A DNA stretch of 64,000 nucleotides from Bilabrum cf. latius (lineage: Eukaryota): the NCBI GenBank assembly GCA_965178125.1, contig OZ237757.1:806001-870000 (forward strand), written 5' to 3'. Under the pieces are notes generated by a model. That model worked only from the letters and a program-made list of their open reading frames with translations. It ran no database searches and was not told the origin of the DNA. A program made the translations under genes and the position numbers. This document shows, in pieces, positions 3 through 64,000 of this stretch (the stretch's first letter is position 1; the number at the start of each line of letters is the position of its first letter).

Positions 3-3000
3 AGGCAGAAGCAAGCACACGCTTTGAGAGCGGCAGGGAGCGGTGGAGGGATGGGCAGCAGCACAGCAACAGCTGGTATGGACGGCTTTGAGGCGCTCGC
101 CGAGGCCCTCTAGGCCGACGATGATGAGGAACAGGAAGATGCACACACGCACGGGCAAGGGAACACCAGGCCTGGGCAAGCGCGGGTCACCTCTGCCGCG
201 AGTGACGTCATGCGTGTGGTGGGTGCGAGTCACGAGCCGCAGGAGACGGAACGGGCTCTGGGCCGCGAGCAGGCGCGAGTGGCGTGGGCGCTTGCGGCCC
301 CCGCCGAGAGGATGTGCCGGCTGGGGGGGTAGGGCCTAAGCGCGCTGGCGGCCTGCAAGCGGGCGGTGTTTGCGACTGTGGACGAGGCCGCCGCCTGGCT
401 GGGTCACGCGCGGCAGCTGCTGCAGGGGATAAAGAGCAGCAGCGACAGAGGGCAGGGTGCGGTCAGGGGGCACAAGGGTTCGTGGGGGCGGGCTGTCGAG
501 ACCAAGCCAAGCACGGGTGCAGGCGCGGGCACAGGTGCAGGCGCGAGTGCAGACCAGTCGCTGTACCATCGCGCGCTTCATTTCGACTATATCATGCTGG
601 ACGATGCGAGCGGTATCACCCGGGAAGAGGTGCTGCCAGCACTGGCGGCGTGCCATCTCGCTTCACAGCTGAGTCAGGGAACACGTGGTGAGTCAGGTGC
701 GGGCACCAGGGTGGGACTCACTCACGGCAGCACGGCTGCAGCGGCAGCCGCCGCAACCAGCGCGACAGGTGCACCTGCAGGCACCCTCCCGGGGATGCCG
801 ACGCTGATCCTGGCGGGGGACCCTCGTCAGCTGGGGCCCGTAATCCACGACCGGCTGGCGGAGCTGGCGGGGGCGGGTGTCTCGCTGCTTGAGAGGATGC
901 TGGGGGCAGGGTACAAATTCAGTGCCACAAGCAGCAGCAGCTCAGGTGATGGATCACAAGACGACAAAGAACCTCTGCAGCAGCATTCCATCCAGGCCTT
1001 CCCGAGAGGAGTGTGGATGCAAGGGACAGTAGGCGTGGCTCACCTGACTACGAACCACAGAGCTGCCCCCGTGCTGGCTGCGTTGACCAAGCACCTCGCT
1101 CAGAATGAGGTAGGTGCAGCAGGCGATGCAGAGCGCGAGCAGACACACATGCAGGCACAGAAATAGCCTTCGCGAATCCCGCCCACCGGCAGGGAAGCAG
1201 CTGTTTGCAGTGCACTGCATGCGGTGCTCGTCCAGGGACCAGCCAGCGAAGCGGGTCATGCATAGGATGACGATGATGCACAGAAGCACTCGGCCGTGTA
1301 GCCCGTCACGATGGACGATCTGGACGAGCTGGAGGAGGAGCTCTTCGGAGATGGGCCCAAACGGGCTGCCGGAGGACCGCCGGTATCTGAATCTGAATCA
1401 GCACAAGAAGAATACGATGATATCGGGGCCCCTGTCGATGCCGATGATGCTGCAACCCAGGCAGCCCTGGATCTGCTCGCGCCGGGATCCCCCACCAGGC
1501 CTGCAAACGAAGAAGAGGCTGGTGCTGATGCAAGCGCCGAGGCAGAGACGGAGCCTTAGGTTAAAGACTAGCACGGCGAAACAAAGGCAAAAGAAGGAGA
1601 CGATACCCAGCGTACTAGTCTAGACGTCCGAGCGGCGCGAAAAGCGCGCAAGGAGAGGAGGCGGGCTGTCGCGGCAGCAGCCACCACGTCGGGTTGGGGA
1701 GGCAGGCAGTCCCTCCCGCAAAGCGACTCCGACTCGGAATCTGATTCCGAGTCCAACGGCGGCGGCGAGGACGGTGCCGCGGAAGAGGCGAAGAAGCAAG
1801 GGCCGATCAAGTACGCGCAGCCCGCTGCCGGGTCCTCGTCGTCGACTGCCGCCGGGTACAGCTCCATACCAGGCGCATTGCATGCAAGTGCGGGCGATGG
1901 CGCGTCCAGCAGCGGATGGGCAACGAGGGGGCAGACCCCTGCTTCGGGTAGCGGGTCAGTTCCCACATCTCCAGTGAGCGGTGGCAGCGGTGCGGGTGCG
2001 GGTGCTGGTGTGGACAGCTAGGGGGAGGAGGACAAAGATGAGGAGGGCATCGGCGAGAGTCATAGCGAAGAGGAGGACAAGCAGGAGGATAAGGGGCCTG
2101 GGGCGTTGCCCGAAGAGGAGGGCGCTGCGCTGCGGCTGCTTCGCGACCTATGCAAGTGCTGGCCGGCAACGGGCCGGCGCGTGATATAGGCACTGCGAGA
2201 AGCCATGCAGGCAGCAGGAAAGAAGGGGGGCAGTGGGAGCGAACATGGGGCGCTTTCGCTTTCTGGGTCTCGCGCAAAGGATGGAGGTTTTGGCGCAAAT
2301 ACCGAGCCACATATGCCTGGGTCTGCATCTGAGTCAGGACTGCTCTTTGGGGGTGCGTCTGGCGTCACCGGGGGCATGCCTGGGCTGGGTGGGCTCGGGC
2401 TCGGCGGCGGCGCGGTGGGCGGGGGCTTCGATGCGATGCCTGCGGGCATGCTGAGCTCCTTGGGACAATCCGCGGGGTCTATGCCCGGCATTGGCGGCAC
2501 GGGTGGGGGAGGCGGCCAAACGTCAAAACTAGAGATCGTGGACCAGGATTCGGGCGAGGCAAATGCGGGGAAACAAGGCGCAATGTTGGTGCATTTCTGC
2601 TCTGCGGCGGCAGATGCTGATGGCTGCAGAATCTCCACCAACCCATCGATGGCCAAACATGGCGACCCCACCGCCAAGCAGATTGCGAGAGACGTCGCAA
2701 GGATCGTGCACAAGTCGCTGCAAGCAGCCGAAGCGGCAAATAAGCGAGCACAAGAGGAGGAAGACAAGGAAGCAGATGCCCGCCAGAATGGGCTTGTTCC
2801 CCAGGGAACACAATCGAACGTCTCTGCGCCCCTGTCATCGTCTCCTTGGGACACAGCGTACTCCACCGGTGGACCCCCAACCCAGTCAGGAGGCGTGTCG
2901 TCAGGACTGGGCATAGGGGCCCGGCACCTGCAGGGCGGATTGGGCGGGCTGTCTGCGGGTCCGTTCGGGGGCGGTGGCAGCGGCAACGGCGCCTCACCAG

Positions 3001-5738
3001 CCGTGAGTCCGTTCGGGGGCAGCCCGTTCGACGAGTCCCCGTTCGGGTCTGGCTTTGACGAGACAAACGCCTGGAGGACGCTGCAGGAGCAGGGGCCGCA
3101 AGGCGCGACGCAGATGGGAATACAGCCACGAGGCCAGCAATGGGACCTGCAGCGTGCAATGCATCAGCCGGCGGCACAGGCGCCACAGCAGGCCCAGCCA
3201 CAAGGCCAGAGCAGAAGCCCACCCAAGGATGGGCCTGGGGCGCACTCGTCACGCTTCAAGGCGCTTAGCGTGGCCGTGGTCTCGGCTTCACAGGCGCAGC
3301 GTGACGCTATCCGAGATGCACTGCGCGAGCGGATTGGCGGAGCAGATCCGCGCATTGGCCGGGTGATAGTCGCTGCACCGGACCAGCTAGAAGGAGTTGA
3401 AGCCGACCTGGTGCTGGTGGCCGCATCCCCGGCCTATGTGTTCGCTGAGGACCACATAGGTATGGAGAGGGCCGCTGCAGCCAGTGGAGACGGGGCAGGG
3501 ACAGGGACAGGCGGGGAGGACGCTGTTGCTGTGCATGGAATGGTGGAGGACTTGGCGACTAGCCCGGAGCTGGCACTGCTGCAGGACGAGAGACGGGCCC
3601 ATGCGGCCATCTCTCGCGCCAAGTTCGGCCTGGTGCTGGTGTGCGACCCTCGGGCGCTCATGCACGACGCCCACTGGGCCGCTTGCGTGGCGTATGCGGC
3701 GTGCCTAGGCGGGCTGCGGGCACGTGCCGCCAGGCCACTGCCCCGACCCAGCCGCAGACGGCACGTCGCGCTCAGGCAGAGCGCGGGGGCAGCCGACGGG
3801 GCGTACAGGAGCGGTGACTCGCTGTCCTTGCACCAGCCCGAGCGGTCTGCAGCAGCAGCAGCAGCGGTGGCGATGCACAGCAAGGCAGAGCCGGATAAGC
3901 ACGCGCGGGCTGCGTTCAACCCCAAGCTGGCATCGCCACCCACAGGCATGGCCGGTTGGGTGAAGCTGGTGGTGGCGGTAGTCGCAGAGATGGGCGGGCG
4001 CACCACAGGTGCGAGCGTGGGCGGCTTTCAGCTGCGAAGGAGCAGGCAGTCGCTCGCGCGGGCCCTCAAGGCATGGAGCCCGGACAAGAAGCTGGGCGTG
4101 GTGGTGCACAGGGCACAGACACTGGGGTACCTCAAGACCACGGGGAGCGTGGACGAGATGGTCATCACCCACAAGGGCAGGTCGCTCCTGACTGGCAAAG
4201 GGGCGATGGCGATGGCAGCATCAGGGGCAGGGGCAGGGGCAGGCAGGGACAGCGAGGGGCCGCAGAGGCGCGCTGGCACCGGGCCTGTGGTGGACCCTCG
4301 GTTTTCTGCGGGGGTGGAGGAGGGCGGTCTCGAGAGGGCACGGAGCTCGCCACCGGTTGCAACCACCGGGGGCCTGCGGGTGGAAGTGGCGGCGGGTGCG
4401 GCCTCGGGGACGGGGGGCGGCGGCGGGAGCGGGCTGCCGAGGAGCCATTCTGCGACGGAGGCGGGCGTATCCAAGGCGCGGGGCAGGCTGGGAGGAGCAG
4501 GGGCATCCGCGCCCATGGATACACTAGAGGACTGGCGGTGGACCGTGCTGATGGCGGTGGCAGACAGGGGCGGGCGGGCCCCCATCATCGAGGTGGCCAA
4601 TGCGTTCAACGCGCGCGCCAAAGAGAGCATGAAAAACTCCCTGGCGAGGGTCAGCCCGGGTTCTACGATCGCCAAGACGCTCACTGGCATGACGAAGACG
4701 GGCATGCTCGTCAGCAGGGCGGATAAACAGTTAGAGGTGCCGAGGGCCACGATGGAGGATCTGCGGGGGAACAAGGGGGTGGGCAAAGCGGCGATCGCTG
4801 GGTCGGCGGCCTCCTCAGCGACGCGGGCGCCCACGGGCGGTGCCGCTGCACGTGGCACGCCGCCGCCCCCGCCGCCGCCGCCGTCCACGGCGCCGCCCGG
4901 TACCGGATCAGGTTCCGCAGCAAGCGCGGCGCCGCGCATCCCCGTCGGGCTGCCCTCCACGACCATCGAGTGGCGCGAGCAGGTGCTGGCCATCCTGCGG
5001 GAGCAGGGCCCCTGGATCACGCTTGCCAGGCTAGGCGTGCTCTACCAGGTCAAGCACCGGGCCGGGCTGCGGGCCGCGCTGCAGGCGATCAAGCCGGCGA
5101 TCAAGCCGAAGGGGGAGGTGGAGGGGATGATCAAGAGGGGCCTGGTCCGCGTGAGGGGGCACGGGATGGGGGCAGAGCTGGCCATCGGGGAGGGTGCAGC
5201 GCACGGGGGTGAAGAGCCAGGAGCCGCGCGAGGGGCGACCGGCGGGGCCAAGTCCCGGAGCAGTGCATCATCGCACAGCAGCAGCAGCAGCAGCAGCAGC
5301 GCCGGGCCCAAGCACATTCTCAGCTGGAATGCGCTCAAGGGTGGGGCCACCGGTACTGGTGCCGGTGCCGGTGCCGGGCCAGCGCGCGCGCCTTCCTCTT
5401 CAGCCTCCAGTAGGGCGGGTGCAGAAGCTGCCGGTGCCAGGCCCGGTCTCAAGCACGGCGCGAAGACCGCAGCCGCTTCCACCGCGGCAGCCTCTAGGAG
5501 TGCGTCTGACTGGCAGGCGCTCGTGTGCAGGCTCATGCGAGGACTGGGGCCGAACGTGCCTGCTGCGCGCATAGGCATCGCGTACAAGCAAAAGTTCGGC
5601 GAGAAGATCGCCCGTGCCATGGCGAACGACGGAGTGAGCATGCCGGGGGTGCTCGGTGCCATCGTCAGGGCTGGCAAGATAAAGGTATCCGGGGGCAAGG
5701 GAGAGCACGCCAGGTACTCGCTGCAAGCTGCACATTAA
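3..5738 (+). CDS. 5'-partial UPF1/MOV10/DNA2-like superfamily 1 helicase (degenerate motifs) with four C-terminal winged-helix/LOTUS-like repeats; needs TAG read-through
   Basis: One frame runs from the window edge to TAA 5736-5738. It is interrupted only by TAG (111, 330, 1164, 1263, 1299, 1557, 1569, 2019, 2187). SF1 motifs occur in the correct order on both sides of the TAGs: DYIMLDDAS, LILAGDPRQLGPVI, SLLERM, LTTNHR, then VAVVSASQAQ, PDQLEGVEADLV, DERRAHAAISRAKFGLVLVCD. Confidence 0.8.
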
Positions 5739-6085: not shown

Positions 6086-8068
6086 ATGCAAATTAAATCT
6101 GGTGCCGCAATCCTATTTTTTGCGAGCTTGCCGCCGTTGCAAGCTGCAGTTGCAGCAACAACGAACAGAACAGTGTTCGTTGACGCGCAAGCCAAGCCAA
6201 ATAGTACTGTCCCAGAGGACTTTCTCGGATTCAGGTGAGATGCAAAACAATTTTTGAGTGTGTTCGGTGATCTATGCTGGTACAGCTTGTTGTGCTGGCC
6301 ATGCATACCTTCAGATCCTCGCAGCTCCAATTGGATCAACTACCCCGGCCTCGTAGGCAACGAGACTAAGGACTACCCGGGTCAGTCATGGTTTGTCCCG
6401 ATTCTGCAGAATTTATAGCCATGCCGGGACTGTGCCGGGCCGCTCATTCGCATTAATGGAGACGGCCAGGCACCATTTTGGGGCGAGGGATGGAAGGACA
6501 AGCGGCCTCCCGAGTGGGGCTCCAACGCCGGCTACAACGTGTCTGCAGCTGCTGCAATCGCAATAGGAAAGGCTGTTCATGAGCTCAACTCATCCATAGT
6601 GGTGGGCTTGCCTTTTTAGGTTTTATTCACGCATTTCGAGAAGCAGCCGTACAACGCGTGCCTCGCCGTCTAGATGGCATAGGGGGTCCGCTAGCAGCTG
6701 GATTGCATACCCGGCGGGAGCTCGATTCGTATGCGACTTGAAGTTGGCAAGTGAGTTCAGCTTCTTCGCGCAGCGTGCAGCCCTGGTGCATGAGCCAGCA
6801 TCTCGTCTAGACGCTGCAAACCCTTGCTGGCTTGGATTATACCTGCCCCGTCTGTTTTTTCCTGCATCTCTCACAGCGAGCCAGACATTGACGGACCCAG
6901 GCTGGATTTCTACCACGACGAGCAGGGCTGGGAAGACCAGTGGACCGCATTTGCGACCAACTTGACCTCCTCGAAGGTCATCGCCGGGAGCTGCTCCACC
7001 GGTGGATCCGGCCCCTCCTTCCAGCCAGACGACATTGTCGGCGCCGTGTGGGCGAGCTGCAGCTGGTGCAAGTACGCCGGCGACTACGTGTCGCGCAGGG
7101 GCTCACTGCTGGGCGAAGTGAACGTTCACTGGTACCCCTTGATCAAGGGTTCCAAGCCGGGGATGGGCGACCTCCTCAGCGACATGGCCTCCCTGGGCAG
7201 CCTTAGGTACCACGGGTACGATGTGGCCGCCCAGCACGTCAGATCCCAGGGCAAGCGATTCACCATACGGGAGTCCAACAACATCAACATGGGCGGGATG
7301 CCCGGCGTTTCGGACCGATTCGGAGCGGCGCTGTGGGCCGTGGATGCTCTGTTCTCCGCGGCGTCGATCGGGTCCAGCACCTGGCACTTCAACACGGGCA
7401 CGGGCTGCGGCACCGACTCCGAGGGCACGCCGTACGCACCGTTCTGCGTGGACTTGTCGAAGGGATGGGGCCCGGGGCCGCGCGTGGGTCCCCCCCAGGT
7501 GAGGCCGGCCTTCTACGGTATCATCGCATTCGCGCGCGCTGCTCTGCAGGACGGTGGGGGCGAGTCGGCGATGCCGCTCGTGCAGACGATGCAGTACAAC
7601 TTCGGTGACAACGTCGTCGTGTGGGCCGTTCGCCGCCGGGGGAACAAGTGGGACGGGCTGGGTGCCTCCAGGCAAGTGCTCGTCGTGGTGGTCGCAAACA
7701 AGAATTTGGTGTCCATGCCCGGCCAGCCCGACGCGCCCGCCGCCACGAACGTCTCCATCTGCGTGCGGGGCGCCTCAATACAAGCCCACGGCCAGCACCA
7801 TGGGCAGCGTGGGGTGGACGGTTCCGGGTCCGATCCCACCAAGCCCTGGCTGGAATGGATGCAGGCATCCAAGGGAGCAGGTTCGGCCGACGGTGTCACG
7901 CTCGCGGGGCAGACGTTCGACGGTACGGAGGACGGGAGGCCCACAGGGCCCGTGCACCGCGAGCCGGTGCAGCCGTCGGCCCCTGGCGTGTGCGCCGAGG
8001 GCCTGCTGGGGCTGATGGTGCCCGCCCCAGCGGAGACCGCTGCCTTCGTGTACATCCCGCTCGACTGA
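6086..8068 (+). CDS. Secreted glycoside hydrolase family 79-like protein (beta-glucuronidase/heparanase-like); 3 exons ~6086-6234, ~6325-6750, 6877-8068
   Basis: Signal-peptide-like N-terminus, then VPEDFLGFS and GPLIRING. The acid/base motif EVGN/EPD is rebuilt by splicing. Downstream: VHWYP, nucleophile region IRESNN, GMPGVSDRFGAALWAVD, VRPAFYG. Exon 2 has 5 in-frame TAGs (6416, 6617, 6671, 6680, 6692). Ends in TGA. Confidence 0.85.
6235..6324 (+). other. Spliceosomal intron 1 of the GH79 gene (alternative in-phase acceptor at 6285)
   Basis: GTGAGA donor and CCTCGCAG acceptor, phase 2. Removes an in-frame TGA and gives DFLGFSSNW. Confidence 0.65.
6751..6876 (+). other. Spliceosomal intron 2 of the GH79 gene
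   Basis: GTGAGT donor, pyrimidine tract, TCACAG acceptor. Splicing restores the catalytic GNEPD motif. Confidence 0.9.
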
Positions 8069-8164
8069 GGCATCCAATGGGCGGATGGGTCCTGCGGGGT
8101 CAGGGGTTGGCCTGATGGATTGGCTTTCTAGCGCCCTGTGTGACGAGTGCGAATAGATGCTTCG

Positions 8165-8243
8165 GCTGGTGGTGGCCTTGATGCTTGCGTCTGACTCTGC
8201 TTTGCCAATTTTCGAATCGCTTTCATCTTCCAGCAGCAGTGCT
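8165..8243. repeat. ~75-bp dispersed repeat, copy 1 (copy 2 at 10351-10433)
   Basis: Shared core TTGATGCTTGCGTCTGACTCTGCT(T/A)T(G/A)CCAATTTTCGAATCGCTTTCATCTTCCAGCA. Confidence 0.9.
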
Positions 8244-8339
8244 GCAGCCAGCACCATTACCGCGCCGTCATTTTGGCCGTCGCCCAAAGAGCTCTGGTCC
8301 TACAGGTTCACTTTAGCTTGTGTGGCACATGTCCTGAGC

Positions 8340-9938
8340 TCACTCGTTGTCAACCACCACCTCCGCGTCATGCGAGACATGAATGCTGTGCACCCGAACC
8401 AGGTCAACCCGACCGTTCCCATTGCCAGCACACAGGTAGTAGGGCCCCGCCTATTTACCTGGAGGCAGCTTCTCTTCCAGCACGTGCTCAGTGCCCCGGA
8501 CGACCACCACCAACCGACCTTTCACGGTGCCGTCGCCAAGCTCCAGGCGAATAGTGACATCCTCGTCAGCGGCGACCTTCCTTGCCTCTACTTTGGTACT
8601 AGTTCGCCCACGCGATCCCTTCAGCACCTCGCCATTTCGCGCCCATAGCAGAGACTTGTTGCCATTGTCCCACCTGTTCCCAATCTGCTGCCTGGTGCCC
8701 CATGCCACGCCGTACTCCATATCTACCCTAGTTCCGTTCTCCTCTCGACCAGACATGACCGCCTCCATCGTGCCGCTGCGGATGCCCACACCAAAGTGCG
8801 TGTCACGACCAGACGCAGCGACTCGAACCGTCATAGGATCCCCGTCGATAGCCGCGCATCCGTTCGTGCCCGACCACCGCATCGCATCGCCCACCAGTGA
8901 CACCGAGTGCATTCGGCCAGGGAAAAGGCCAGCAGGCAGAGGTTTACCGAGACGTATGTCAGCATCGATGCTTGCACCGGCCATGGCACGCTGCACATCC
9001 GCAGGCAGCCGATGCAGCCTAACGGCACTCGTCGCTACACCAGCGTGACGCATACCTGCAGCGATAGAGCGCGCGACCACTCTCGCCATCTTATCCCGCG
9101 CGCCTGGTGCCCCTGGATCCATCTGTAGCATCTCATGAAGGCCCTCTAGTCCCATCGCGGCGTATGGAATGACGGCCCACGCCCACTCGTCACACCTGAA
9201 ACAGCCGCGGAGAGCGGTGGCTACGGTCGCGGCGCTCTCTTCGACCGCTTCCCTCACGCGCACAGCGGCTTCAGCATGCAGCCGACGGGGCTCCACGCCC
9301 CGTTCAAGCGCAGCCCGCACGTCCTGCACGGCCTCTTCCACCATGCCAAACATTTCAAAGGGCCCGAGGTCGCGGAGGAGCCGCCCCACCATCTCCAGCT
9401 GCTCCTCCGCGCTCTCACGGAAGCGCTCGGTGACGCCATAGTGGGCCCTTGCTGCTTCCTTCGACGTGTTTATACACCTACGCAGCAGCGACGCGAGCTC
9501 ATTCACGGCCGTCACCACGTTGTCATGAGCCTCTATCGAGACCAGAGCCCCCTCGGCAGCCATCAGGCAGGGTGGGCTTGCAGCACCGCTGCCGCAACTG
9601 GCGCCAGCGCTCGCGCCAGCCCCCGAAGCTGCTCCTGCGCCAGCGGCCGCGCCAGCATCTCCGCCTTCACCACCGGTCAGACCACTGGCAGCAGCGCCGG
9701 TCGCCTCGCCGCCCTAGCCCTCGCCCTCGCCCTCGCCCTCTCCACCGGCAGTCGCTCGCCGATCATCCTCCAGTGTCTCCCGCAGTTTTTGCAGGATTGC
9801 AGGCTTTCTCGCCGCGAACTCAAGCAATGCGACATCTTGGGCTTTGGTGGGCACTCCGGGGGCTGTACCTGCCTCGGTATCCGTCGATTCGCAGACTCCT
9901 GCTGCCTGGGGATGCGCAGCGGTTGTGTCCATTGCCAT
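8340..9938 (-). CDS. Hypothetical protein: helical/coiled-coil N-half and possible SPRY/B30.2-like C-terminal domain
   Basis: ORFs 9714-9980 and 8451-9563 share a frame and are joined through TAG 9714. Reading through TAG 8451 extends to TGA at 8340 (..KLPPGK*AGPYYLCAG..). The beta-rich end (HFGVGI, VTIRLELGDG..GRLVVVVRG, GPYYLCA) is SPRY-like. The start could instead be 9980. Confidence 0.65.
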
Positions 9939-10350
9939 ATTCGCTACGAGGCGAAGAGAGAAAAATTGGGGGTGCATCATAACACAACGTTAACACTTTG
10001 AGTATGAGTGCTACTACATGCGGCGAACAGCGCTGCAAAGCCGCCAAAGTGGCAGCGACGGCCCGGCTTCCAGGGTTTGGACACAGTGGACAATCCCCTG
10101 CGACAATCCCCTGCTAGTACTTTTCGGCACGGGGCACTTCATCTCGTCTACTAGCCAGCTAGGCATACCACTATTTTACTGCCATTTCTTCCCGTTACTC
10201 ACGGAATTCTAAATTCAGGGCTCCTTCTGAACCGGGTAAAATGTCGCGTTGGATCCGTGGCAGGCGCGGAAGCTTCCGTGACGTGCACGCAACAATACGG
10301 AAAAACAGATTGCGTGACACGAGCGGCTAGCCGCGCTTGCGTCTTGCTCT

Positions 10351-10433
10351 GCTAGTGGTGGCCTCGCTTGATGCTTGCGTCTGACTCTGCTATACCAATT
10401 TTCGAATCGCTTTCATCTTCCAGCACTGGTGCT
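10351..10433. repeat. ~75-bp dispersed repeat, copy 2
   Basis: Near-identical to 8165-8243, same orientation, with a small indel near one end. Confidence 0.9.
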
Positions 10434-10458
10434 ACCACCACCGTCGGTGTCCTCGTCG

Positions 10459-13188
10459 TCACCTGTCGCCGTCGTCGTCGTCCGAAGAGCTATCGCCCAG
10501 CAGATCCACCACTGCCTCCTCCCCACCGGCCTATGCCGCCACTGCCTTGCGGCCTGATGTCCTCCTGTCCTGGCCCTGGCTCGCACCGCTTTGGCCTGAA
10601 GATGATGATGACGATGATGACGCACTAGGTGTGTTTGTACCACTCGTCACACCGAACGCGAACAGTCCACCAGCATGACTTGGCAGCTGCGTCCGGGGCC
10701 CAGTCTCCGTGCGGGTTCGCTTGCGAGCAGCGCCAGCACCAGCGCCAGCGCCAGCACCAGTACAATCCTGCGCACGACCACCTGCAAGCGGTAGCTGGAC
10801 GATGCGAGCACCACGGCGATGCAGCGAGGAATTCGATTTGGACTAAAGTGGAGCTCCTGGAGTCCTGTCTCCCTTCGATTGGCGCTCAGAGGCCTTGGTG
10901 CGGCTTGCGACTGGGCCCTCACCACCGGCACCCTTGATAGATCTATCTTCATCTTCATCTTCATCTTCATCTTCATCTTCATCTTCGCCACAACCTCCAC
11001 CACCCGTGAGGTCGACGGGCCCCGACGCATCCGAAGCGCTGTTTTGGCTGATGCTGCCCCGCTTCCGCTTCCGCGTGCGACTGCCGGCAAGATTCAGCCC
11101 GCGCTGGCCCGTTGCACTGAACGGCCTATTATGCGAGGCAGAAGAGCTGCTTTGGGCTGGCAGCGAGCTCGAGCTCGAGCCCGAGCCGATGCGTGGCGTC
11201 GAGCTGGCTTCCATCTGCTCAGCAGCTTTAGTAGCAGCGCTTGCAGCAGTACCCGAGCGAGAAGCCCCTGAAGAACGGAGGATCGTCGTCTTCTTCCCGA
11301 ACAGCATGCCGGCTGCGGCGGCCTTGCTCGCGAAGGGGTTGAGCAGCTTGAGGATGCGTCTCCTGTCGGATGCATCTCTGTACACGGTGGGGTGGATGGC
11401 GCCTGGCCTCGCCCACCTGACGAACCGAGTCAGCTCCGAGTAGCTGGAGTGCTCCGAATAGGGCGCCAGCAGTACCGTGGCACTCCCCCGCCGCAGCGTC
11501 GTACGCTTGGCCCCGTGGGCCCATCCAGTCGGGACGATCCCAATGACCCCCGGCCGTTGATCCAGGCCCAGCTGTGCGCGCTGGCTGTTGACCCTGTCGA
11601 GATACGTGTGCATGGCCTGCCAGTCGGGCCGGAAGAACGGGAAGGTCTCGCCGCACAGGTCCATGCCAACGACGTGAAGCGGGCACGTGGCCGCGGGGCT
11701 GGGCGTCGCAGGGTGGCCCGAGACCGGTGAGCTTCCGACGGCGGCTGCACGGCCGGACGCTGTCGCGCTCGATGCAGACGACAATGATGGCGGATAGGCC
11801 GATCGTGCTAGCGCTGGTATCGCCGGTCTACCTGCTCCAGCACCACCGTGCGTTGCACCTGCAGCCCCGCTTTCATGCAGTGGCTGACCAAGAGAGCCTG
11901 CTCGTACTGCTATCTCGCTAGTGTCCCCCCCTGTGCTGCACCTCGCCAGCACACCCTCGCTGATTCCCAGCGCACGCAGCACCTTGAGTTTTCTCGCGCT
12001 GATGTACGCTGTGTCTAGAGGTTTTGACACGAATCTGCTTCCTTGGCTGCTTGGAATTGGCACCTCCGGGCTGCTAACACCATGTCCATTGCGCAAACTC
12101 CCACCTGCACCTGCATCTGCACCTGCACCTGCTGTACCTGCCATCGGACCCAAATCAAGATCCAGGAGAGCCTCAAGGACCTTCTCTTTGCCTACCACGT
12201 ACGCAGCCAGCAGCACCAGCGGGGTTGGCCCAGCGCCACCGTGCCCTGCACTAGACTCGCTGGATGTGGGCTTTGTCCCTGCTGCTGGCGGTGAGCCCGA
12301 TGTCGCACAATCGCGATCTTCTGTGCAGCCAGTAGCATGAGGCAGTCCATGTGCGCTGGAATCAGTCCCTACAGTGCTGTTGTCGCCTGCTGCTTTGTCG
12401 CCTGTGGCGATCACCACTGGCACCTGCATCCTCATCCTCATTCTCTGGATCTCCGCCCTCACCCTGCCGGCGATGGCTGCAACTGCTTCTTGCTGGACGG
12501 GAAAATCATGGCGAGCCCTGCAGTAGGTGGTGTCTACAAATAGGTGGTCTATCTTGACCCTGCGTTTCCCCGCAGTATGGTGCTCCGTCGTGCCTGCCTC
12601 AGCCTCGGTGGAGCCGCTCCGCGGTGCCCTTCTGGGAGGGGATCGCGGCCCCGGACCGACGGCACGATAAAAATAAGGGTACCGCTCCATGCTCGCACAT
12701 GCCCTAAAGTCACCCGTATGGAGCACAATTGTCCCAACAGGTCTCCGGCGAGGCTCGCCGATCCATGCCTTTGTATCAATAGCACGGGATGACGTGTCGA
12801 TGGCAGAATCCACGGCGTGGGCCATCTCTGCTTCTTCCCTGGACCCAAACACTTCAAATAAAAGCATGACAGCTCCTGGGCAATGATTAGCATTACTTGC
12901 TGTTACAATGGCTGGTGTCGAGTTCTCAAGGAGGCGGGGGCAATCGAGTGCAAGCCGAACTATACGCTTAGGCTGCACACCAAGGATCTGCTCTGCAAAA
13001 TCGGCGGTCTTTCCCGAGGCATACAGATGGCATCCCTCCAAAGCAAATGATGATGACAGACCACCATAGTGATCACCGTGTGCATGAGTGAGAAAGAACT
13101 CTGTTGCAGTTCGGCGAGGCTATCTGAAGCCGTCGACCAGGGCTTGTGGAAGACCTGGAACCTCATGTGCCTCTCTTGCTTGATTCAT
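10459..13188 (-). CDS. SNM1/DCLRE1-family DNA cross-link repair nuclease (metallo-beta-lactamase/beta-CASP)
   Basis: MNQAREAHEVPGLPQALVDGFR*PRRTATEFFLTHAHGDHYGGL (HxHxDH), then ANHCPGAVMLLF, LHTGDFR, LFVDTTY, AYVVGKEK, IVPTGW, APYSEHSSYSEL, IHPTV. In-frame TAGs at 13120, 10843 and 10531. Ends in TGA. Confidence 0.9.
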
Positions 13189-13313
13189 TGAGGAAGTTCT
13201 CGAATCAAATTACATGCAACCACTATAATCCGACGCTGCTTGCACCCGCTTATCTGGCAATTCGGAGCCAATGGCAGGTCGACATGCAGCGATGTGGCAC
13301 TCCACAAAGAAAC
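13189..13313. promoter_or_regulatory. Putative compact bidirectional promoter between the divergent SNM1-like and PTRHD1 genes
   Basis: Only ~125 bp of lower-GC DNA separates two head-to-head start codons. Inferred from position only. Confidence 0.45.
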
Positions 13314-13932
13314 ATGGCAGCCGTGGGCGGTGAAAGTGAAATATCAGTGGTTAATGGTGCCGAGCCGGTTCCGTCAACAGCGAAGAAAGGCCCTGAATTG
13401 AGCGCAGCAGACCCACCAACAGATGGTGCAGTTGAGGAACCTCTCGTGCAGTATATAGTGCTTCGAAAAGATCTTGTAGATAAATTGGAATGGCCTCAGG
13501 GGGCTGCAATTGCTCAAGCCTGTCATGCGAGTACAGCAGCCTTGCATGCTTTTAAAGATAGAGATGAAACGAAGCGATATTTGGATGACATCAAGAAGTG
13601 AGAGTGGCCGAGCTCTGTAGCAGCGGTCTGATACATTCACTGACAAACAGAAGCAGTGCGTGGTACTATTGTTTGATGCGTTTGCTGCATACCATCCGAT
13701 TTCACATCTAACCTGCCTGCCGAGCGAGCGCAGCATGCACAAGGTGGTGCTTGAGGCAAAGCACGAGGCGCACCTGGAGAAGATCGCGGCCAAGCTAGCC
13801 GCAAGAGATCCGCCTATCGAGCACCAGTCGTGGGTCGAAATGCCGGAGAAGATCGTCACGGCGCTCGCCACTCGACCGTACGCCCGCAGCGCGATGCGAG
13901 CGGCCTTCAAGGGACTGCGGCTGTTTAGATAA
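13314..13932 (+). CDS. PTRHD1: Peptidyl-tRNA hydrolase 2-family protein, PTRHD1-like; exons 13314-13597 and 13734-13932
   Basis: LVQYIVLRKDL..WPQGAAIAQACHASTAA..YLDDIKN/MHKVVLE..WVEMPE..TALATRPY..FKGLRLF. Ends in TAA. Confidence 0.88.
13598..13733 (+). other. Spliceosomal intron of PTRHD1
   Basis: GTGAGA donor, CTAAC branch-point-like sequence near 13708, GCGCAG acceptor. The join gives DDIKNMHKVVLE. Confidence 0.88.
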
Positions 13933-14142: not shown

Positions 14143-15417
14143 TCAGCGCGATGATGGTGTCGGCCCAGCCATCCACACACACAGCGTTGCAGCCCCTACT
14201 GTGACGAGTGCGGCCACGCCAGCAGTCCAGGGTCTCCCTGCGATGCTGTGCCGACTGCCGCTGGTCTCGCTCGGCTGCCCCGTACTCGGGCTCGATCCCG
14301 GGAGTTCCTCGCCTTCACCCGACCCCCCATCCACCGATCCACCCGCTCCCAATCGATCCTGCTCCTCCTCCCCCCCCTGCTCCTTCACCTCCTCTGCCCC
14401 CTCCTCTTCTCCCCCCACCGAGGCCCCGCCCCGCCCCCACCCCGCCCGTGCCGCTGCCTCCAGAAGCGCCTGCTCCCACCGACCCGCCTCCCCACGCCCC
14501 ATCCGCACCGCCCCGCCTACCCCATCGCCCCCACCACTCGTCACACCTGTGTCCTCCCTCTCTTCCTCCTGCCGCCCTTCAGCGTCCAGCTCCACCTCGG
14601 GGAGCAAAGCAGCCACCTCCAGTGCCAGGTTCGGGGCCTGCCCCGTCAGCTCCCCGATCCCGAGCCCGCACAAGGTTCCGTCCGATTGCGCGGCGCCGGG
14701 AGGGCTCACCGGGCGGTGCAAGACGTGGCCGGCCTCCACTGCGGAGAACTACGGGCACGGCGTGGCGCCGGTGACGGGCCCTCCCGTGGCTGCTCTGACG
14801 GCGGAGAGGGTGCTGCCGTCCTGCTGCAAGCCGAAGCAGATGTACTGCCCCACCGATGCAGGGTTCGCGTCGTTCCTGGTCAGTAGCGTGATCGCATTTA
14901 TCACTCCGTCTCGCCCAGCCGTCGAGGTTACCCTGCGAGGACTAGTGAGTGTTCGTGGAATAGTAGGTTGATGGCATTTCCACCGTCGACGACAGTGCCG
15001 GCCAGAGAAACGAATCGCAGCGTTAGGTGATTTCATCAGGTCGCCGAAGTATTGGGATGTTACATCGGCCAGATGGTCAAAGTGCACCTCGCTGGATCCA
15101 GTTCAGCAGCTGTGCGGGTGTTCGACACGTCCAATTCATGAAAACTGTCCTCACGCGACTGTCGCTTCCACAACCGATTCTTTTGCAACTACCCTGCCGA
15201 GCAGGTCTTTGGTAGCCACAACAAGCTCCTGTCTTATGGTGGAAGATGTCACAGAGGTTTGTATCGCAGCGCTTCCAATCGTGGTCTCGAGCTCCACCGG
15301 AGATGTAGCGGAGTTGGGGAGCTGCAAAGGACCAACGCGCCACACGCCGCACAGTGTGGCATCCCGTGACTGTAACTGTGCATTCGATAGCACGACTAAT
15401 AAACTGATCCAGAGCAT
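14143..15417 (-). CDS. Hypothetical type I membrane protein (signal peptide, C-terminal TM helix); putative intron 15092-15154
   Basis: Starts MLWISLLVVLSNA. A phase-2 GTGAGG...TCCAG intron removes in-frame TGAs. TAG 14749 is read through. Hydrophobic WTAGVAALVTVGAATLCVWM precedes the TGA. Confidence 0.65.
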
Positions 15418-15967
15418 CCCGTCTTACGACCGAATGATCCTTGCGATGACTCGTTCGCAAAATGCGCGGCGCCGCCGTCGCAACCGTTGGTCGCAGGCCT
15501 TCAAACCCCCTTGTAACCCACATCGAGACGCCCAGTGAGCCCGATCTGAGAGTTTGAAAATGGTATACAACACCATGCACTGGCTCTTTAGCGGCACTAG
15601 TTTGCTTCAGGGTCATGGCAAAGGCTCAAGCGACCGGCACATAGTCTAGTGCGGTTCCAGCGACCCTGGTTCGCAGCGGTTGTAACCTGCGGCCGAACGG
15701 GCTGGTATCCATTTGGCCTCCCTGTGAGGCCCTGTACCGTACTTTCGATACTACATCTTAAGCATGGATTCAATTTAGTTGTTTGTTGTCCCCGAGTGCA
15801 CGAGTAGAGGTGGAGGTACAGGATGGCCGGGCGGCCACGATCCAGCTGGGCTGGTAGCGAGCAAAGCAACGCTCGCGGATGCCAAAAGAGCTCTCCAGCC
15901 CACTGAAGTTCGCTCCAGCAGCTAGTAGCTTGATGAATCATCTCTCGAGCGATCCACAGTCCAGTCA

Positions 15968-24900: not shown

Positions 24901-25654
24901 GGCCGGGGTCGGGACTGGTGGCGTGGCCGGGGAAGGTGAGGGGAAGCGTGAGGGGGGCGGTGACGACGGCGGGGGCCAGGCGCTGGGGCTGAGGCTGCGG
25001 CTAGTTGTTCCCCGGGGAACTCGGAGCGATAATGGCGGGGCGAGGGGGCGGCAGGTGGACGAGGGTTGCGTGGGTGCTGCGCTGCTGGGCGGTCGATTGC
25101 TTCAGCTGCTGGTGGGGGCGGGTGCCTCCGAGGGAGAGGGGCAGGAGGGTGATGGGGAGGATGGGAGCGTGGCAGAGAGTGTGACGAGTGAGCAGCGGGT
25201 CGACGGTGGCAGCGGAGAGACCCCGGTGCCACTTGGGGGCGCGAGTGGCCGCTATCACTCGTCACATCAGCCAGGTCAGCTGCTCCGAGGCATGGGCTCG
25301 AGCATCGACGTTCTGCGGCGTCGCCAGTGGTTCCGCAACCAGAAAGCCTCCCCCACGTCGCGAGCTGGTGAGGCTGGTGGCGATGGCAGCACGCGTAGCA
25401 GTGCAGTGCACCCGGACCTGTCGTCCGCTTGGAGGGACGCGTAGGAGGTGCTGGAGGAGGAGGACGGCGAGGTGCTTGCGCAGGCCGTGCTGGAGGCAGC
25501 CCGGGAGGGCGCCCAAGGTGCACTGTATTCGGGTACTGTGCGCACCCGGCTGGCGATGCGTCGGCTCGCCAAGGTGTGGGGCCAGGTGGGTGCGGCTGCC
25601 CAGCACGCCGAGGTGAGCGTGGAGCAGGTGGACGAGCACTCGCTCGGGATTTGA
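15968..25654 (+). CDS. Large hypothetical protein (~3,200 aa; helical and low-complexity)
   Basis: Fourteen track ORFs (15968 to 25448) share one frame. They are separated only by ~24 TAG codons, with no in-frame TAA/TGA until TGA 25652-25654. I recognised no domain. Confidence 0.78.
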
Positions 25655-26040
25655 GTCGGGGTGTAGAAGAACCTTGCGCGGTCTGTACGCGGTCCCTGAG
25701 TGGTCATGGAAAGCGTGCAGCACAAGGTGCGCCTGCACGATCCAGTTACAGCTCCGAGAATCGGATCCAACTAGTAAAATTTGATGATTTTGGCAAGATC
25801 CAGGATCAGGACAAATCAAACCGCAAAGCAGACAGACCACTGGCAGTGATCACCCTTTTGACGGGAATATTGAGACTTTTCATCAAGTAATTGTTTACTT
25901 CTCCCAGGCAGTTTCGTAACGTTTTCTGTTGTTTTGGACGAAGGCGGCTGGACCAGCTGGCCAATAATATCGACTGCCAGTGGGCTGATGAGTTTCCAAG
26001 AGGTTTCTCGCATCTCCTGGTTTTAATATATTGCATCGGA

Positions 26041-30402: not shown

Positions 30403-30738
30403 ATACTAGTAAATCGTTCCAGCTTGTTAAGAACCGTAGGCACAATGCAACGAAATGTACGAGAAGACGAACGCTGCAAAGGTTGCTGTTGAAAATTGCA
30501 TCATGAGCTTCATCGACATCTACGGCGAGGCTTTCATGCCCTCTTCACGACAAATGCGAAATCTTGTATGCAACAGCGGCACTGGGGTTGAAAATTGGCG
30601 TAGCGCCTGGTCAGGGGAGGCTCGGAAGTTCCGCTGAGCAATTCGGTGCCGGCGGCGCCTCATCACCTCTGCTGGCCTGGCTGTGCTGAGTCTTAAAGAG
30701 GTTTCTCGCATGTCGCAGTTTTAATATACTGCATCGGA

Positions 30739-54173: not shown

Positions 54174-56258
54174 TTACGCATGCAGACCAACGGCATCCCC
54201 AGCACGGATTGCAACATCAACACGCGCAGCCTCACGCACCGCCCACTCATGCACACGCGCAGCCTCGCAAGCCCCCGCCCAGTCCACACCATCCCCGCAC
54301 AGCCCACGCTCCAGCGCGCCCAGCGCAGCATCCAGCAGCCCAGCCCCGGCCCCCTCCCCCAGAGCCACATCCCACAGCCCTATGGCACCCTCCCCTCCAC
54401 CACAGCTCCCCACACTGCCCCCGCACCTCGCCCCCCCCTGTCCCTCCACAAGCACTCTCTGTACCCCATCCACGCTCGCCCGCACGCCCTCCCACACCCG
54501 CGCCGCCTCTTGCTCGCAGACACGGGCCTCCTGCTGGGCCTCTTCCGCTCCCAGCCGGGCAGCCACCAGCTTGTTCCAAGCCCTCTCCTGCATCTCGAAC
54601 TCTTCATCCGCCTCCTACAGCTACCACCTGTACTTTTTGCCTCGCCGCTCATCCTCCTCGTCGTTCCCGCTCATCTCGCAAAGCTTCCTCGATTGAGCCA
54701 AGCACGCCTCCCGAGCCGCCTGCTCCCGGGCATGTGCATCCGCGCCCAGCCCCTCCCGCAGCTCCGACGCCTTCTGCCGCTCATGCATCGCACGGTCGCG
54801 CACACCACGCCACTACTCACGCAGCTTCGACAGACCCGCACGCACCTGACCCACCCACCTGCCCACACACGAGCACACACCCCCGTACCCAGCGGCCCCC
54901 ACCAGCCGCATGCACACATCCACGCAGCTCATGCCCCGCCCCGCAGGCCTGGTCCCATCCGCCCCCATGCCCCACGCGCCGTCCTGCAAGCCCCACAGAC
55001 CCCGCGTCCCATCGCCCAACTAGACCACACCGTCAAGCAGCACACACACGCAGTCCGCGTGCCCGCCCACACAGGCCCCGCACAGAGGGTCGCACAGCAG
55101 CGCGCTGCATCCTTCCAGACCCAGCCGGCTTTTCGTACGCCCGTCCACACCCACCCGCACACGGGCCCGCAAGCCCCCGCCCAGTGCCCCCAGCCGGACC
55201 CGCTTGCCCAGCTCCAGGGGCCTGCCCTCCGCCGCGGCCCGGCCCATGCGGCCTGCATCCCGGCGCGCGGCATGAGCCCTCCTGTGCAGCACCGCGGCCC
55301 GCTGGCGCCAGGAGGAGAAGCCCTCCAGGTCTTCGTTACGTGGCGGCACATCCATGTCGCGGGCCTTGAATTTGATCTGCCTCCGCTGCCGCACAGCCTG
55401 GATGGCCTCTCGCATGCGCTGTCTGCTTTCCAGCGTGCGCAGCGTGGCGCTACAGAATACGGATTGTAAGGAGTCACTTGTGGCGATCGCGGCTGCCAGG
55501 GCATCAGCTGCATCCGGCCCGATCAAGTTGCCATCTACATCGATGATTTGCAACCTGCATCGGCTGTCGGGGCCCAGGCACCGCGCCATGGCCCGCGCCA
55601 TTTCATCGCCGCCGTGAACATTACTGAGCAAGATGTTCTTCATGGATGGGCATTGCTGGATGCTGTTGAGGATGGCGGCGGCACCATCGTCGCCGATCGG
55701 GTTGTTGTCAAGACAAAGTATCTGCAGGCTGGTGCTCGCCCTGATGCCGTTCGCGATGGCAGCTGCTCCCTTGTGCTCGATGCCGCATGCATTAACAAGC
55801 ACCCGCTGCAGAGTGTTGGATTGCTCAATGGCCTTCCCAATAGCCAGAGCCCCGCCCAGGTGCAGCCAGCACATGCTCAAATCTAAGCCTTCGAGGGAGG
55901 GGTGCGCCCCGGCTGCTGCTGAAAGTGCTGCTGCTGCCTTCACGTCCAGATTTCGATTGGAACCAGCCGAGAATGAGAGTAGGCTCGAGCTCGATCGCCG
56001 CAAAGCATCCGCGATCAGGGTGGCACCCTGCGGCGTGCATCGCGTTGTGCCCACGTCCATGTCCACAATTCCTGGAGCAGTGGCAAGCAAGTCGGCAACA
56101 GCCTGAATGGCACGGCTTGAGCTCAAATCGCCAGAAAGTACAATACGCATGGGACCAGCATTTTTCTGAATCCTTCCAAGCTCATCCACGAATGCGTCGA
56201 TTTGATTTTTGTAGCACGGAACGTGTCTCGAGAGGGTATCTGTAGGATACGATGTCAT
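54174..56258 (-). CDS. LRR protein paralog 3, inverted (~694 aa)
   Basis: Reverse-complement near-identical copy. It has the three shared TAGs plus a private TAG at 55020 (TCG in paralogs 1 and 2). Ends in TAA. Confidence 0.83.
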
Positions 56259-56604
56259 TCCGATGCAGTATATTAAAAATGGGAGATGCGAGAAACCTCT
56301 TTAAGAATCAGCACAGTCGATACTTTCACACCTATACCATCTGCCAGGTGTGCTTTCTAAACTCTGGCTGTAATCTTTGCCCTATCTGTCCAAAATGGAT
56401 TCAGCTAGACTAGTGGCGCCGCGCACTCTTGGCGGAACCGGATCCGACGGCTCGACCAGGTACGACAAGAAACAAAACAGTAACTCCCGACAAGAAGGAT
56501 AAGACGTGTATATGTACCGCAACATCTTAAAGCAGGCCTCTATCTGTCCATTGATAATAGTGGACATTCAGGATCAACAGCACAGGCGAGCACTGCCGTG
56601 AGTA

Positions 56605-61716: not shown

Positions 61717-62116
61717 GCCTGACCCAGTATTTCTCCTACAATACAGACCCACAGATCAGATTGGGATAATACTCTGAATCAACCTCATTATACGTTTTTG
61801 TGGGTAACGCGAATCCTGCGCGGTGTACTCGTCAAACCGTTCGAATTGAGCTAGGATTCGTGAAGGTTCCATGCTGTTTTGGACGACAGAAACTTTAAGC
61901 GTAAATATTGGCGACAATTCGACGTGAACAAGCACATATATACGATAGTCCCGCAGACAACGAGGTTGAGAAAGGCGATTTTCAGTTTTTGTTTAGTTGC
62001 GAGGCGTTGTGGCATCCCACATTGCAGGTTAGCCAACAGCAACTGCAACATATTGAAAGTTTCCGAGTTATACTCTGTTGTGGCGTGGCCTCCGTAGGCG
62101 TTTAATTGTACTAGCA

Positions 62117-64000
62117 ATGAGTAGGCAAGGCGGAAGGGATGGTGATGGCAGCAATGATGATGCTTGGGCTGCACTTGGTGATGGTACTGTCGGGCAGATA
62201 TCCGATTTCCCTGTCCCAAAGAATAGAAGTGACGCAAGCAACATGGAGACACACACCAAGAACGATATATAGAGCTCAGTCAACCCAGATGGCGGTTTCT
62301 CTCAATCGCTCTTTGGAGGAGTTGGCGGCATGCTGCCCGATGCACCGCTGCCACTGGCCCAGCCCCCAACCCCTGCATCTGGCCAGAGCCCAGACAGCCG
62401 CCAATTTGGACCCAGTGACAGCAGCCTAGATTTGGAATCAGATTCAGACGGTTGGGAGTGGGATCTGGGCGAGCATGGTCAAGGCGACCCAGGGGCAGCA
62501 GGGAGGAGGGGCACTGGCAGCCAGCCGCAGCACACTCTCGGGAGCGGCCGGGGAGCGGTCGCAGGCACACCGCAGTACCCCACACCCTCACAAGTAGAGC
62601 CATCAGGCGGTGTCCGCTACCGCCTGTTCTCCGACCACGACGACTCATCGTCACACGAGGCGGGCAGCTGGGGCGCCCCTGCCTCCACTCCTACTCAGCC
62701 TAGCTGGGGGCCTGCTTCCACAGACGGCGCCTGGGAGAACGAGGGTTTCGATTACGGGTTGTATTCAGAGCCGATGGAGCGGCTGGCGCCAACTCTTCTA
62801 GAGCCGGACCCTGTTGAGTTCTGGAGGGCATGCCGCACGGCGGTGCGAGCCTGTCTCGGCGCGGAGAGGCCTGGCAGGCTGGAGGAGGCACTGACCCAGG
62901 CGACCGTGGGGTGGTGGGTCCCAGGGTATGCAAGACTTGGCGAGGACGACGAGGATCGGGGGTCGATGGGAGAAGAAGGAGGAGGAGGAGAGGGGGGCTG
63001 GGCGGTCGGATTCGGGGATGGGGCCACAGCCGGTGTGCCTGGAGCAGAGAGCGAGGGGGCCGGGGATGATGCTGGTGTTGCAGACGGATCGGGTGACCAT
63101 TCTAGCGAATACGTCGATGCTGGAGAGCTAGAGGCGTGGCGAGACATCGACAGATCCGCCCTCAGCTGGTGCACGAGGCAGGTCGTCGAGGAGAGGCAGA
63201 GGGAGAGGGCTAGGAGGTGCGGCGGCGGCAGGACGGCAGGATCGTGTTCCCCAGGGAACAGGACGAGGTCTTGGGAGGAGGGGCTGCGGGCGCGCGGGTC
63301 TGGCCCCCAGCTCAGGACAGCTCTGGACGCTCTGCACTCCCTCCCCGCCGCCTTGCAGCCCGGGTGCCTGTGGGCTGCACTCGTGGCCTGGCGGGTGGAG
63401 GGGCTGACCAGGCCCCAGGGAACAGAGGATGGAGGAGTGGAGGAAGGGCTAGCGCACGAGGGAGAAGAAAGTAAGTCCCTGGCAGATCTCATCGTGCAGG
63501 CAGCGGGTGCGTGCGGGGGCCTGGGAGGAAGCTGCGGGGGAGGGGACACCGTCGCGGATGGATCGCTGGGAGTGCCACAGGCAGTCGGCTCGAACACAAG
63601 CTCGTTCGAACACAGCCCAGCACCCGTGCAGCACGCGAGCGACGCGGGCTCTGGCCCCGCCGGTGCCCCCCTGTGTGCAGACAAGATCAGGAGGGCCAAC
63701 CTGCTGGGGGCCTGGCTGGAGGGCGAGCTGGGGGCCTCTGTGCGGCGAGAGGGGGCGGTGCCCATCGGCGCGCGGGAGGCCTCTGTCCTTCGGCTTAGTC
63801 TCCTGGACCTGCTCAGGGGCATGGGGAACTCTAGAGGGGTGGAGGAGGCGGCCGTGGCGCTGCACCTCTGGGGGCCTGTGCTTGCTGAGGCCGTGGGGCG
63901 GTCCTGGGAGGGCAAGGGGGAAGGGGTGGCGGGCGGCGAGGCTGTTGACGGGCGAAGGGATGAGCAGGCGCTGGCGTGGGCCGCGGCCCATCCAGGCGGG
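62117..64000 (+). CDS. 3'-partial hypothetical protein
   Basis: ATG 62117 (MSRQGGRDGDG..), one TAG at 62270, then apparently open to the window end with composition typical of the other genes. Confidence 0.7.

Follow-up and report, generated by a model that had tools for sequence, protein, structure and literature searches.

A GC-rich nuclear genome in which UAG is a sense codon, most likely for glutamine, while UAA and UGA remain stops

Nuclear genetic codes that separate UAG from UAA are rare and are known from a handful of lineages, mostly ciliates (PMC11687900, PMC5304391). Reassignment of UAG alone to glutamine has been described in the fornicate Iotanema spirale, which keeps UAA and UGA as stops (PMC5304391), and in the ciliates Hartmannula sinica, Trochilia petrani and Protocruzia tuzeti (PMC11687900). 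UAG alone is read as leucine in the rhizarian exLh and three TARA phyllopharyngean ciliates, and as serine in Scotinosphaera (PMC11687900), while the ciliate PL0344 reads UAG as glutamate and UAA as lysine (PMC11687900, PMC10553269). Joint reassignment of UAA and UAG to glutamine occurs in many ciliates, in ulvophycean green algae and in Hexamita, Streblomastix and Amoeboaphelidium (PMC11687900). Here we analyse a stretch of 64,000 nucleotides assigned to Bilabrum cf. latius (contig OZ237757.1, positions 806,001-870,000, forward strand; hereafter the window), for which a preliminary description had proposed that TAG is sense whereas TAA and TGA still stop. The list of precedents given there, Iotanema for glutamine and the rhizarian for leucine, was incomplete, as it omitted Protocruzia, Hartmannula, Trochilia, the TARA ciliates and Scotinosphaera (PMC11687900). 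With a GC content of 58-75%, spliceosomal introns and genes of eukaryotic type, the window belongs to the nuclear genome of a GC-rich eukaryote. We hold with good confidence that UAG is sense in this eukaryote, where it most likely stands for glutamine, and that UAA and UGA are its sole terminators.

A code of this kind is already known, as it equals the pattern of NCBI table 15 (UAG alone to glutamine). The same code 15, with TAG read as glutamine, is reportedly used by crAss-like and other gut phages. The window is not phage DNA but comes from a cell nucleus, with spliceosomal introns and eukaryotic genes (SNM1A, a Upf1-like helicase and PTRHD1). Among the closest described systems is Iotanema, with which the window agrees in several respects: the codon is the same, the inferred amino acid is the same, UAA is kept as a stop, the host is a non-ciliate protist, and the same tRNA and release factor mechanism is predicted (PMC5304391). 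Unlike the window, Iotanema is known from a transcriptome, and its eRF1 has been seen (GTS motif, T32G); we found nothing on GC content in that paper (PMC5304391). With Hartmannula, Trochilia and Protocruzia the window has in common the code table, a preference for UAA as stop and a wide spread of UAG inside genes. It differs from the UAG-only ciliates, whose GC content is 27-54% (PMC11687900), in its GC content, its giant low-complexity genes, its GT..AG introns and an SNM1 protein without ciliate affinity.

Under the standard code, the longest frames in the window reach about 1,000-1,180 codons, with a maximum of 1182. Treating TAG alone as sense opens frames of 5543, 3308, 1911, 1716 and 1410 codons, along with others of 916, 746, 709, 708 and 549. 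As a control, each stop was freed in turn, which gave a longest frame of 5543 codons for TAG, 1361 for TGA and 1259 for TAA. The plus strand of the whole window holds 580 TGA, 330 TAG and 114 TAA triplets; TAG is little more than half as frequent as TGA, so the lengthening of frames is specific to TAG. Open reading frames (ORFs) were bounded by TAA and TGA, so the absence of these triplets within any one ORF is true by construction, and the evidence that TAG is sense lies in ORF length set against the density of stops off frame. In-frame counts of TAA/TAG/TGA were 0/9/0 for positions 3-5738, 0/27/0 for 15728-25654, 0/25/0 for 33421-50052, 0/3/0 for 49691-53923 and 0/8/0 for 56605-61755, whereas the two remaining same-strand frames of these five stretches contain 1-8 TAA, 3-20 TAG and 15-59 TGA, the off-frame TGA numbering 36-59 in a large gene. 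TAG is thus equally common in and out of frame, while TAA and TGA are excluded in frame.

Codon counts were made on 12 trimmed coding segments comprising 17,859 codons, which contain 81 TAG, no TAA and no TGA; the 13 untrimmed ORFs hold 93 in-frame TAG in total. In a codon-usage scan trained on four ORFs and then applied to the remaining genes, the TAG-bearing frame ranked first along the four training ORFs and, among untrained genes, first in three leucine-rich repeat (LRR) paralogues, the SNM1 gene, the gene at 8340-9989 and the frame at 49691-53923. The metallo-beta-lactamase (MBL) domain of SNM1 carries an in-frame TAG both in the window and in a metagenomic relative described below. TAG is a sense codon in this nuclear genome, and TAA and TGA still stop. 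The proposal of the preliminary description is thereby borne out by the long frames, the codon counts, the freed-stop control and the gene ends, and its tallies were reproduced: 9 TAG in the helicase gene, 24 from position 15968 onward (27 over the full frame at 15728-25654), 28 in 33421-53923 and 8 in 56605-61755.

Neither of the other two stops shows such behaviour. Treating TAA as sense does not lengthen frames, and if UAA were sense and followed the CAA:CAG ratio, about one fifth as many in-frame TAA as TAG would be expected, whereas none was seen. The table 6 type of code, in which UAA and UAG are reassigned together, likewise turns a stop into glutamine and leads one to expect a suppressor tRNA-Gln, but UAA is not sense in the window. 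UGA still terminates, given the absence of in-frame TGA, the modest maximum frame when TGA is freed and the seven genes that end on it.

Evidence on the amino acid comes chiefly from SNM1. A HMMER scan recovered a much closer relative of the window protein, P0125 (E=3e-50, 48-54% identical), which shares with it the lineage-specific motif THAHGDHYGGL and has Gln at the column of the window TAG. Two metagenome contigs, L001 and L002, supplied the coding DNA of this relative, and the encoded SNM1 is 62% identical to that of the window over the first 128 residues. Opposite the window TAG at 13120-13122 (minus strand, codon 23), both contigs carry CAG. The L001 gene has a TAG of its own at codon 227, and the stored protein is a 226-residue fragment that stops exactly there. 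Beyond this TAG lie 129 more open codons, including the 22-residue motif PLVLLAAYVVGKEKVLQALLDL, which equals the window at 21 of 22 positions (window ...VLEALLDL); an open frame with a conserved motif past codon 227 indicates that the relative also reads TAG through. This second TAG stands 13 residues past an invariant DTTY; of 120 homologues, 119 have Q in that column, and the window codes it as CAG. For the FPxQ region, a first MAFFT alignment was unreliable and a motif-anchored column tally was used in its place. In the PTRHD1-like gene, two TAGs of the relative stand opposite CAG and CGA of the window. Three of the four TAG pairs between the window and its relative are therefore with CAG, each one C/T transition away, and the fourth is with CGA (Arg). 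In six other SNM1 loci from metagenomes (L003-L008), the part that can be recognised as SNM1 coding sequence holds no TAG, and these loci are uninformative on the code.

The residues around TAG give a second line of evidence. Of all codons with n>=40, CAA (Gln) has the residue context most like that of TAG, with the scores of other codons lying below CAA by 3.9 log units for AGA, 5.3 for AAG, 20.0 for CAG, 20.3 for TCG, 35.5 for TAC and 36.5 for TTG. Within the window, one TAG directly follows CAA CAA CAG CAG CAG, and another precedes GCA CAG GCA CAA, where glutamine would continue a Gln-Ala repeat. The Gln codons of the coding set comprise 537 CAG and 131 CAA, so that the 81 TAG would make up about 11% of them if TAG is Gln.

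Several observations weigh against glutamine and would suit a code in which UAG is sense but stands for Tyr, Lys, Arg, Ser, Leu or Glu. The column of the window SNM1 TAG is Y in 108, F in 9, H in 2 and N in 1 of 120 distant homologues, and the close relative is the only SNM1 homologue with Gln there; consistent with Tyr, the four large ORFs hold TAG (69) in nearly the same number as TAC and TAT together (77). An amino-acid-level context classifier placed Lys and Phe above Gln, with Lys first. The evidence on the amino acid is also thin, consisting of four between-species sites of which one is opposite Arg and one lies in a strongly conserved column, and a pair among the LRR paralogues places TAG (55020) opposite TCG (Ser). 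Codes with UAG as Leu or Ser do exist elsewhere (PMC11687900). These points are answered in part by the data above: the closest relative, with its shared THAHGDHYGGL, has Gln and not Tyr at the SNM1 site, and the codon-level context puts TAG nearest CAA and well away from TAC, TTG and TCG. The amino-acid-level classifier is confounded by local AT content, for which reason the codon-level version was used; local GC is 0.663 around TAG, 0.655 around CAA and 0.692 around CAG, and the lower local GC common to TAG and CAA explains why Lys ranked first. The LRR paralogues differ in a near-neutral manner, which leaves the TCG/TAG pair little weight, and neither Ser nor Leu appears in any of the four between-species pairs. 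The lineages with UAG as Leu, Ser or Glu have likewise uncoupled UAG from UAA, but the window aligns to Gln, both in three of four pairs and in the column that is Q almost throughout. Another amino acid is thus unlikely, and given that TAG is sense we judge with high confidence, on comparative grounds, that it would encode glutamine.

All gene ends listed in the preliminary description (five TAA and seven TGA) were found, together with one further TAA end at 28759. TAA closes 6 of the 13 gene ends (5736, 13930, 28759, 53921, 54174 and 56605) and TGA closes 7 (8066, 8340, 10459, 14143, 25652, 28129 and 32824), although TGA outnumbers TAA fivefold in the window (580 against 114 on the plus strand). 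In 9 of the 12 TAG-bearing ORFs, 70 to 1183 codons separate the last in-frame TAG from the TAA or TGA, with one of these nine distances (114 codons, in 33421-50052) running to a TGA that is out of frame at a G12 shift discussed below; in the remaining 3 of 12 the distance is 37, 24 and 3 codons. The stretch after the last TAG in these ORFs still scores as coding in the codon-usage scan.

These data bear on a reading in which UAG is ambiguous, being Gln within genes and a context-dependent stop in some of them, as in some ciliates and Blastocrithidia. Ambiguous stop/sense codes of this type, in Condylostoma, karyorelicts and Blastocrithidia, involve in-frame UGA or all three stops, with termination also at the codon that is read as sense, unlike the coding set of the window, which has neither TGA nor TAA in frame. 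It must be set against an unambiguous code that only 13 gene ends are available and that ORFs delimited by TAA and TGA would run through a true TAG stop; in the frame at 49691-53923, moreover, a TAG stands just 3 codons before the TAA. An ambiguous UAG is nevertheless quite improbable, and more so than a different amino acid. In most of the TAG-bearing ORFs the last TAG is far from the stop, the tail being still coding (with the reservation that one distance was measured to the artefactual TGA), and the one end that can be checked against homologues belongs to the PTRHD1-like gene, for which the window, L001 and L002 all carry TAA at the homologous position. TAA is also strongly over-used at gene ends for such GC-rich sequence.

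Eight sequencing runs from four studies contain all or part of the frame at 15728-25654, and four of these runs (X1, X5, X6 and X7) were compared as contigs. Runs from three additional studies agree with the window to within 0-1 differences, and X5 belongs to a study other than the probable source. One X5 contig spans 15732-22253 (6522 bases) without a difference, contains 15 TAGs and is colinear with the genome; another spans 22231-24344 with 1 difference, and the two together cover 26 of the 27 TAGs of the frame. A third X5 contig (8206-9943, 0 differences) covers both TAGs of the gene at 8340-9989. Contig pieces of X6 and X7 were tallied against the TAG positions of the window, with X6 pieces spanning 20194-24228 covering 13 TAGs with 0 differences and X7 pieces covering 6. 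Canonical GT..AG introns are removed in contigs of the same runs (13598-13733 in X5; about 14933-15154 in X5 and X7), so both X5 and X7 contain transcript-derived sequence. A further joint, 9943->10203, occurs in X5 and X7 contigs, where it is supported by short sides only (25 and 22 letters). As a point on the other side, X5 is labelled 'RNA? (probably DNA)' and X7 'RNA?', both being guesses, and contigs cannot tell RNA from DNA that contaminates it; none of the eight runs matching 15728-25654 is registered as RNA. That UAG is kept unchanged in mature mRNA is accordingly supported, but not proven.

U-to-C editing of UAG to CAG in mRNA under a standard code would mimic glutamine and would account for the TAG/CAG pairs, and it is unproven that the TAG-bearing contigs are RNA, this reading of X5 and X7 resting on spliced contigs only. 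However, contigs of X5, a run with spliced transcripts, agree with the genome without a difference across 15 TAGs and with 1 difference across a further 12, and about 90 sites in 64 kb would have to be edited. We know of no nuclear U-to-C editing on such a scale, and regard this explanation as very remote. An artefact (pseudogenes, sequencing errors or TAGs within short in-frame introns) has a negligible chance of being correct, since, although the genuine frame break at the G12 run shows that the assembly is not error-free, decay would add TAA and TGA, none of which occurs in 17,859 codons, assemblies of four studies agree, in-frame TAGs persist in three paralogues and in a second species, and an X5 contig is colinear over 6.5 kb with 15 TAGs while real introns were removed in the same run.

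Beyond these questions, the X1, X5, X6 and X7 runs, which come from four studies and bear four organism labels, contain window positions 8201-28200 with 0-1 differences over kilobases. A near-identical stretch under four labels indicates that the organism, or one clone, is present in differently labelled samples.

The relative is present in two contigs from JGI and among ENA and Logan proteins, and its contigs have a GC content of 58% (L001) and 53% (L002). Since this second related lineage also has in-frame TAG, the code belongs to a clade and not to one assembly. The window (10459-13932) and L001 (740-2596) both have the SNM1 and PTRHD1-like genes as a divergent pair, with the PTRHD1 intron in the same place. 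In an SNM1 tree, the window and L001 group together (SH-aLRT 100) on a long branch outside all sampled groups, with no ciliate affinity. The best named SNM1 matches are diatoms at ~30% identity, with animals, fungi and algae at near-equal scores, and the names of SNM1 clusters are mixed (centrohelid, red alga, nematode). A bicosoecid or other stramenopile affinity, a weak impression in the preliminary description, is not shown by this long branch and these mixed matches. Among SNM1-like clusters in the Atlas, Chlorophyta are the commonest with 164 shared features, which is below the guide value of 170; the Atlas result for GH79 (bacteria and Ascomycota) disagrees with this hint. PTRHD1 matches gave no taxonomic signal, and a profile search of genome contigs with the SNM1 alignment returned distant bacterial MBL proteins only. 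TGTAA, a poly(A) motif of green algae, is not enriched in the whole window (17, with 16.3 expected), nor is it placed beyond gene ends on the coding strand. In this lineage, the usual THFHSDH of SNM1 reads THAHGDH, and the column with Tyr in 108 of the 120 homologues would be Gln (CAG in the relative, TAG in the window).

For the mechanism, a tRNA-Gln(CUA), which differs from tRNA-Gln(CUG) by a single change in the anticodon, would pair with UAG but not with UAA, by analogy with other lineages that read UAG as glutamine (PMC5304391, PMC11687900). By the same analogy, the N-terminal domain of eRF1 would have lost its affinity for UAG while keeping recognition of UAA and UGA (PMC5304391). It counts against this account that the 64-kb window contains no tRNA gene, no Rfam family and no eRF1, and that L001 and L002 contain no eRF1; we therefore infer the altered tRNA and eRF1 and do not observe them. 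After reassignment, new TAGs may arise from CAG by C-to-T transitions, an origin that fits the occurrence of TAG in locally AT-richer stretches rich in Lys, Glu and Gln.

The features of the window are collected in Table 1.

Table 1. Genes, open frames and introns of the window, with in-frame TAG codons given as counts and, where listed, positions in brackets.
Feature	Coordinates	Strand	In-frame TAG	End	Remarks
Upf1-like superfamily 1 (SF1) helicase gene	3..5738	+	9 (first bases 111, 330, 1164, 1263, 1299, 1557, 1569, 2019, 2187)	TAA at 5736	5' end cut by window
GH79-like glycoside hydrolase, last exon	6794..8068	+	0	TGA at 8066	
Gene	8340..9989	-	2 (9714, 8451)	TGA at 8340	
Candidate 5' intron of gene 8340..9989	9944-10202	-			CT..AC on + strand
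SNM1/DCLRE1A-like DNA cross-link repair nuclease	10459..13188	-	3 (13120, 10843, 10531)	TGA	Met at 13188
PTRHD1/PTH2-like peptidyl-tRNA hydrolase gene	13353..13932	+		TAA 13930-13932	homology-backed exon 1 part 13353-13597, exon 2 13734-13932
Intron of PTRHD1-like gene	13598-13733	+			GT..AG; spliced out in an X5 contig (289 and 238 letters on either side)
Gene	14143..15421	-	1 (14749)	TGA at 14143	
Intron of gene 14143..15421	about 14933-15154	-			GT..AG; spliced joint in X5 (sides 255) and X7 (side 116)
Open frame, 3308 codons, low-complexity protein	15728..25654	+	27	TGA at 25652	
LRR (RNI-like) paralogue A	25891..28131	+	3 (27484, 27676, 27682)	TGA at 28129	
Open frame, 555 codons	28759..30426	-	4	TAA	codon-usage support weaker, patchy
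LRR paralogue B	30697..32826	+	3 (32182, 32374, 32380)	TGA at 32824	
Giant gene, ~6,800 codons	33421..53923	+	25 + 3	TAA 53921-53923	frames 33421-50052 and 49691-53923
LRR paralogue C	54174..56300	-	4 (one at 55020)	TAA	TAG at 55020 opposite TCG in A and B
Open frame, 1716 codons	56605..61755	-	8	TAA	no Pfam family
Open frame running past window end	62057..64000	+	1 (62270)		TAG near start, possibly upstream of real start

The helicase gene matches Pfam AAA_12 at 2.8e-06 and NAM7/Upf1 in the PDB. Its C-terminal third (3900-5735) holds three repeated modules of ~70 residues after the Upf1-like core; Pfam reported nothing for these modules at E<=0.01, and we take them to resemble winged-helix or LOTUS-type domains. 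The GH79-like exon matches beta-glucuronidase/GH79 in the PDB at 7e-07, and GH79 C-terminal clusters of the Atlas score 0.94-0.95. SNM1 is assigned by Pfam DRMBL at 1.7e-13 and PDB SNM1A at 1.4e-27, and the PTRHD1-like gene by Pfam PTH2, which matched on both exons; the window copy of the latter has no TAG. The gene at 14143..15421 has a weak match to positions 1-390 of L001, and no Pfam family matched the ORF at 15728..25654.

The preliminary description had noted one homopolymer frameshift, which we locate at a run of 12 G (G12, 49887-49898) where the two frames of the giant gene meet with a +1 shift of the coding frame. The likeliest cause is that the assembly has the wrong length for this homopolymer, with a real frameshift as the alternative. 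Correcting for the shift puts the TGA at 50050 out of frame, and it was not counted as a gene end. For the giant gene Pfam yields a sub-threshold PPR match only; a DH/RhoGEF domain at its start, which would have placed a TAG at a conserved Tyr, was dropped, having no Pfam or PDB support. A telomere-like (TTAGGG)3 lies inside its frame at 37665-37682, where it reads Gly-TAG-Gly-TAG-Gly-TAG and is the source of three of its TAGs.

The three near-identical LRR genes have three TAG codons in common. Upstream of the first shared TAG they show 40 synonymous and 87 non-synonymous codon differences (31% synonymous), and downstream of it 24 and 65 (27% synonymous). The comparison was meant as a test of constraint downstream of the TAG; both sides are near neutral and it is uninformative, while the near-neutral differences point to a probable recent duplication or gene conversion. 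An LRR paralogue used as query found no relative in JGI metagenomes, and the C-terminal part found no match at near lengths in the protein collection.

A full-text search of a limited literature collection, with supplements outside its scope, found no report of a GC-rich non-ciliate eukaryote with such a code. With nearly as much belief as doubt, we tentatively suggest an independent, previously undescribed origin of UAG-only reassignment to glutamine in a deep, unplaced clade of at least two lineages, one of them GC-rich and present in runs of four studies and the other known from environmental assemblies; such a code would be the first at about 65-75% GC. High GC content sets the window apart, the phyllopharyngean cases lying at 27-54% (PMC11687900). 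In practical terms, annotation under the standard code would fragment most long proteins of this organism and its relatives; genes on the metagenomic contigs of the relative would be mis-called likewise, and its SNM1 is already stored as a fragment. The loss of a stop codon is usually explained in an AT-rich setting. A genome of 58-75% GC should favour UAG as a stop and use UAA rarely. If the reading given here is true, AT-driven codon capture could not explain the loss of UAG, and UAA would have stayed in use as a stop, or even gained favour, in spite of the mutational bias. A very GC-rich case would thus bear on the choice between codon-capture and ambiguous-intermediate models of codon reassignment.

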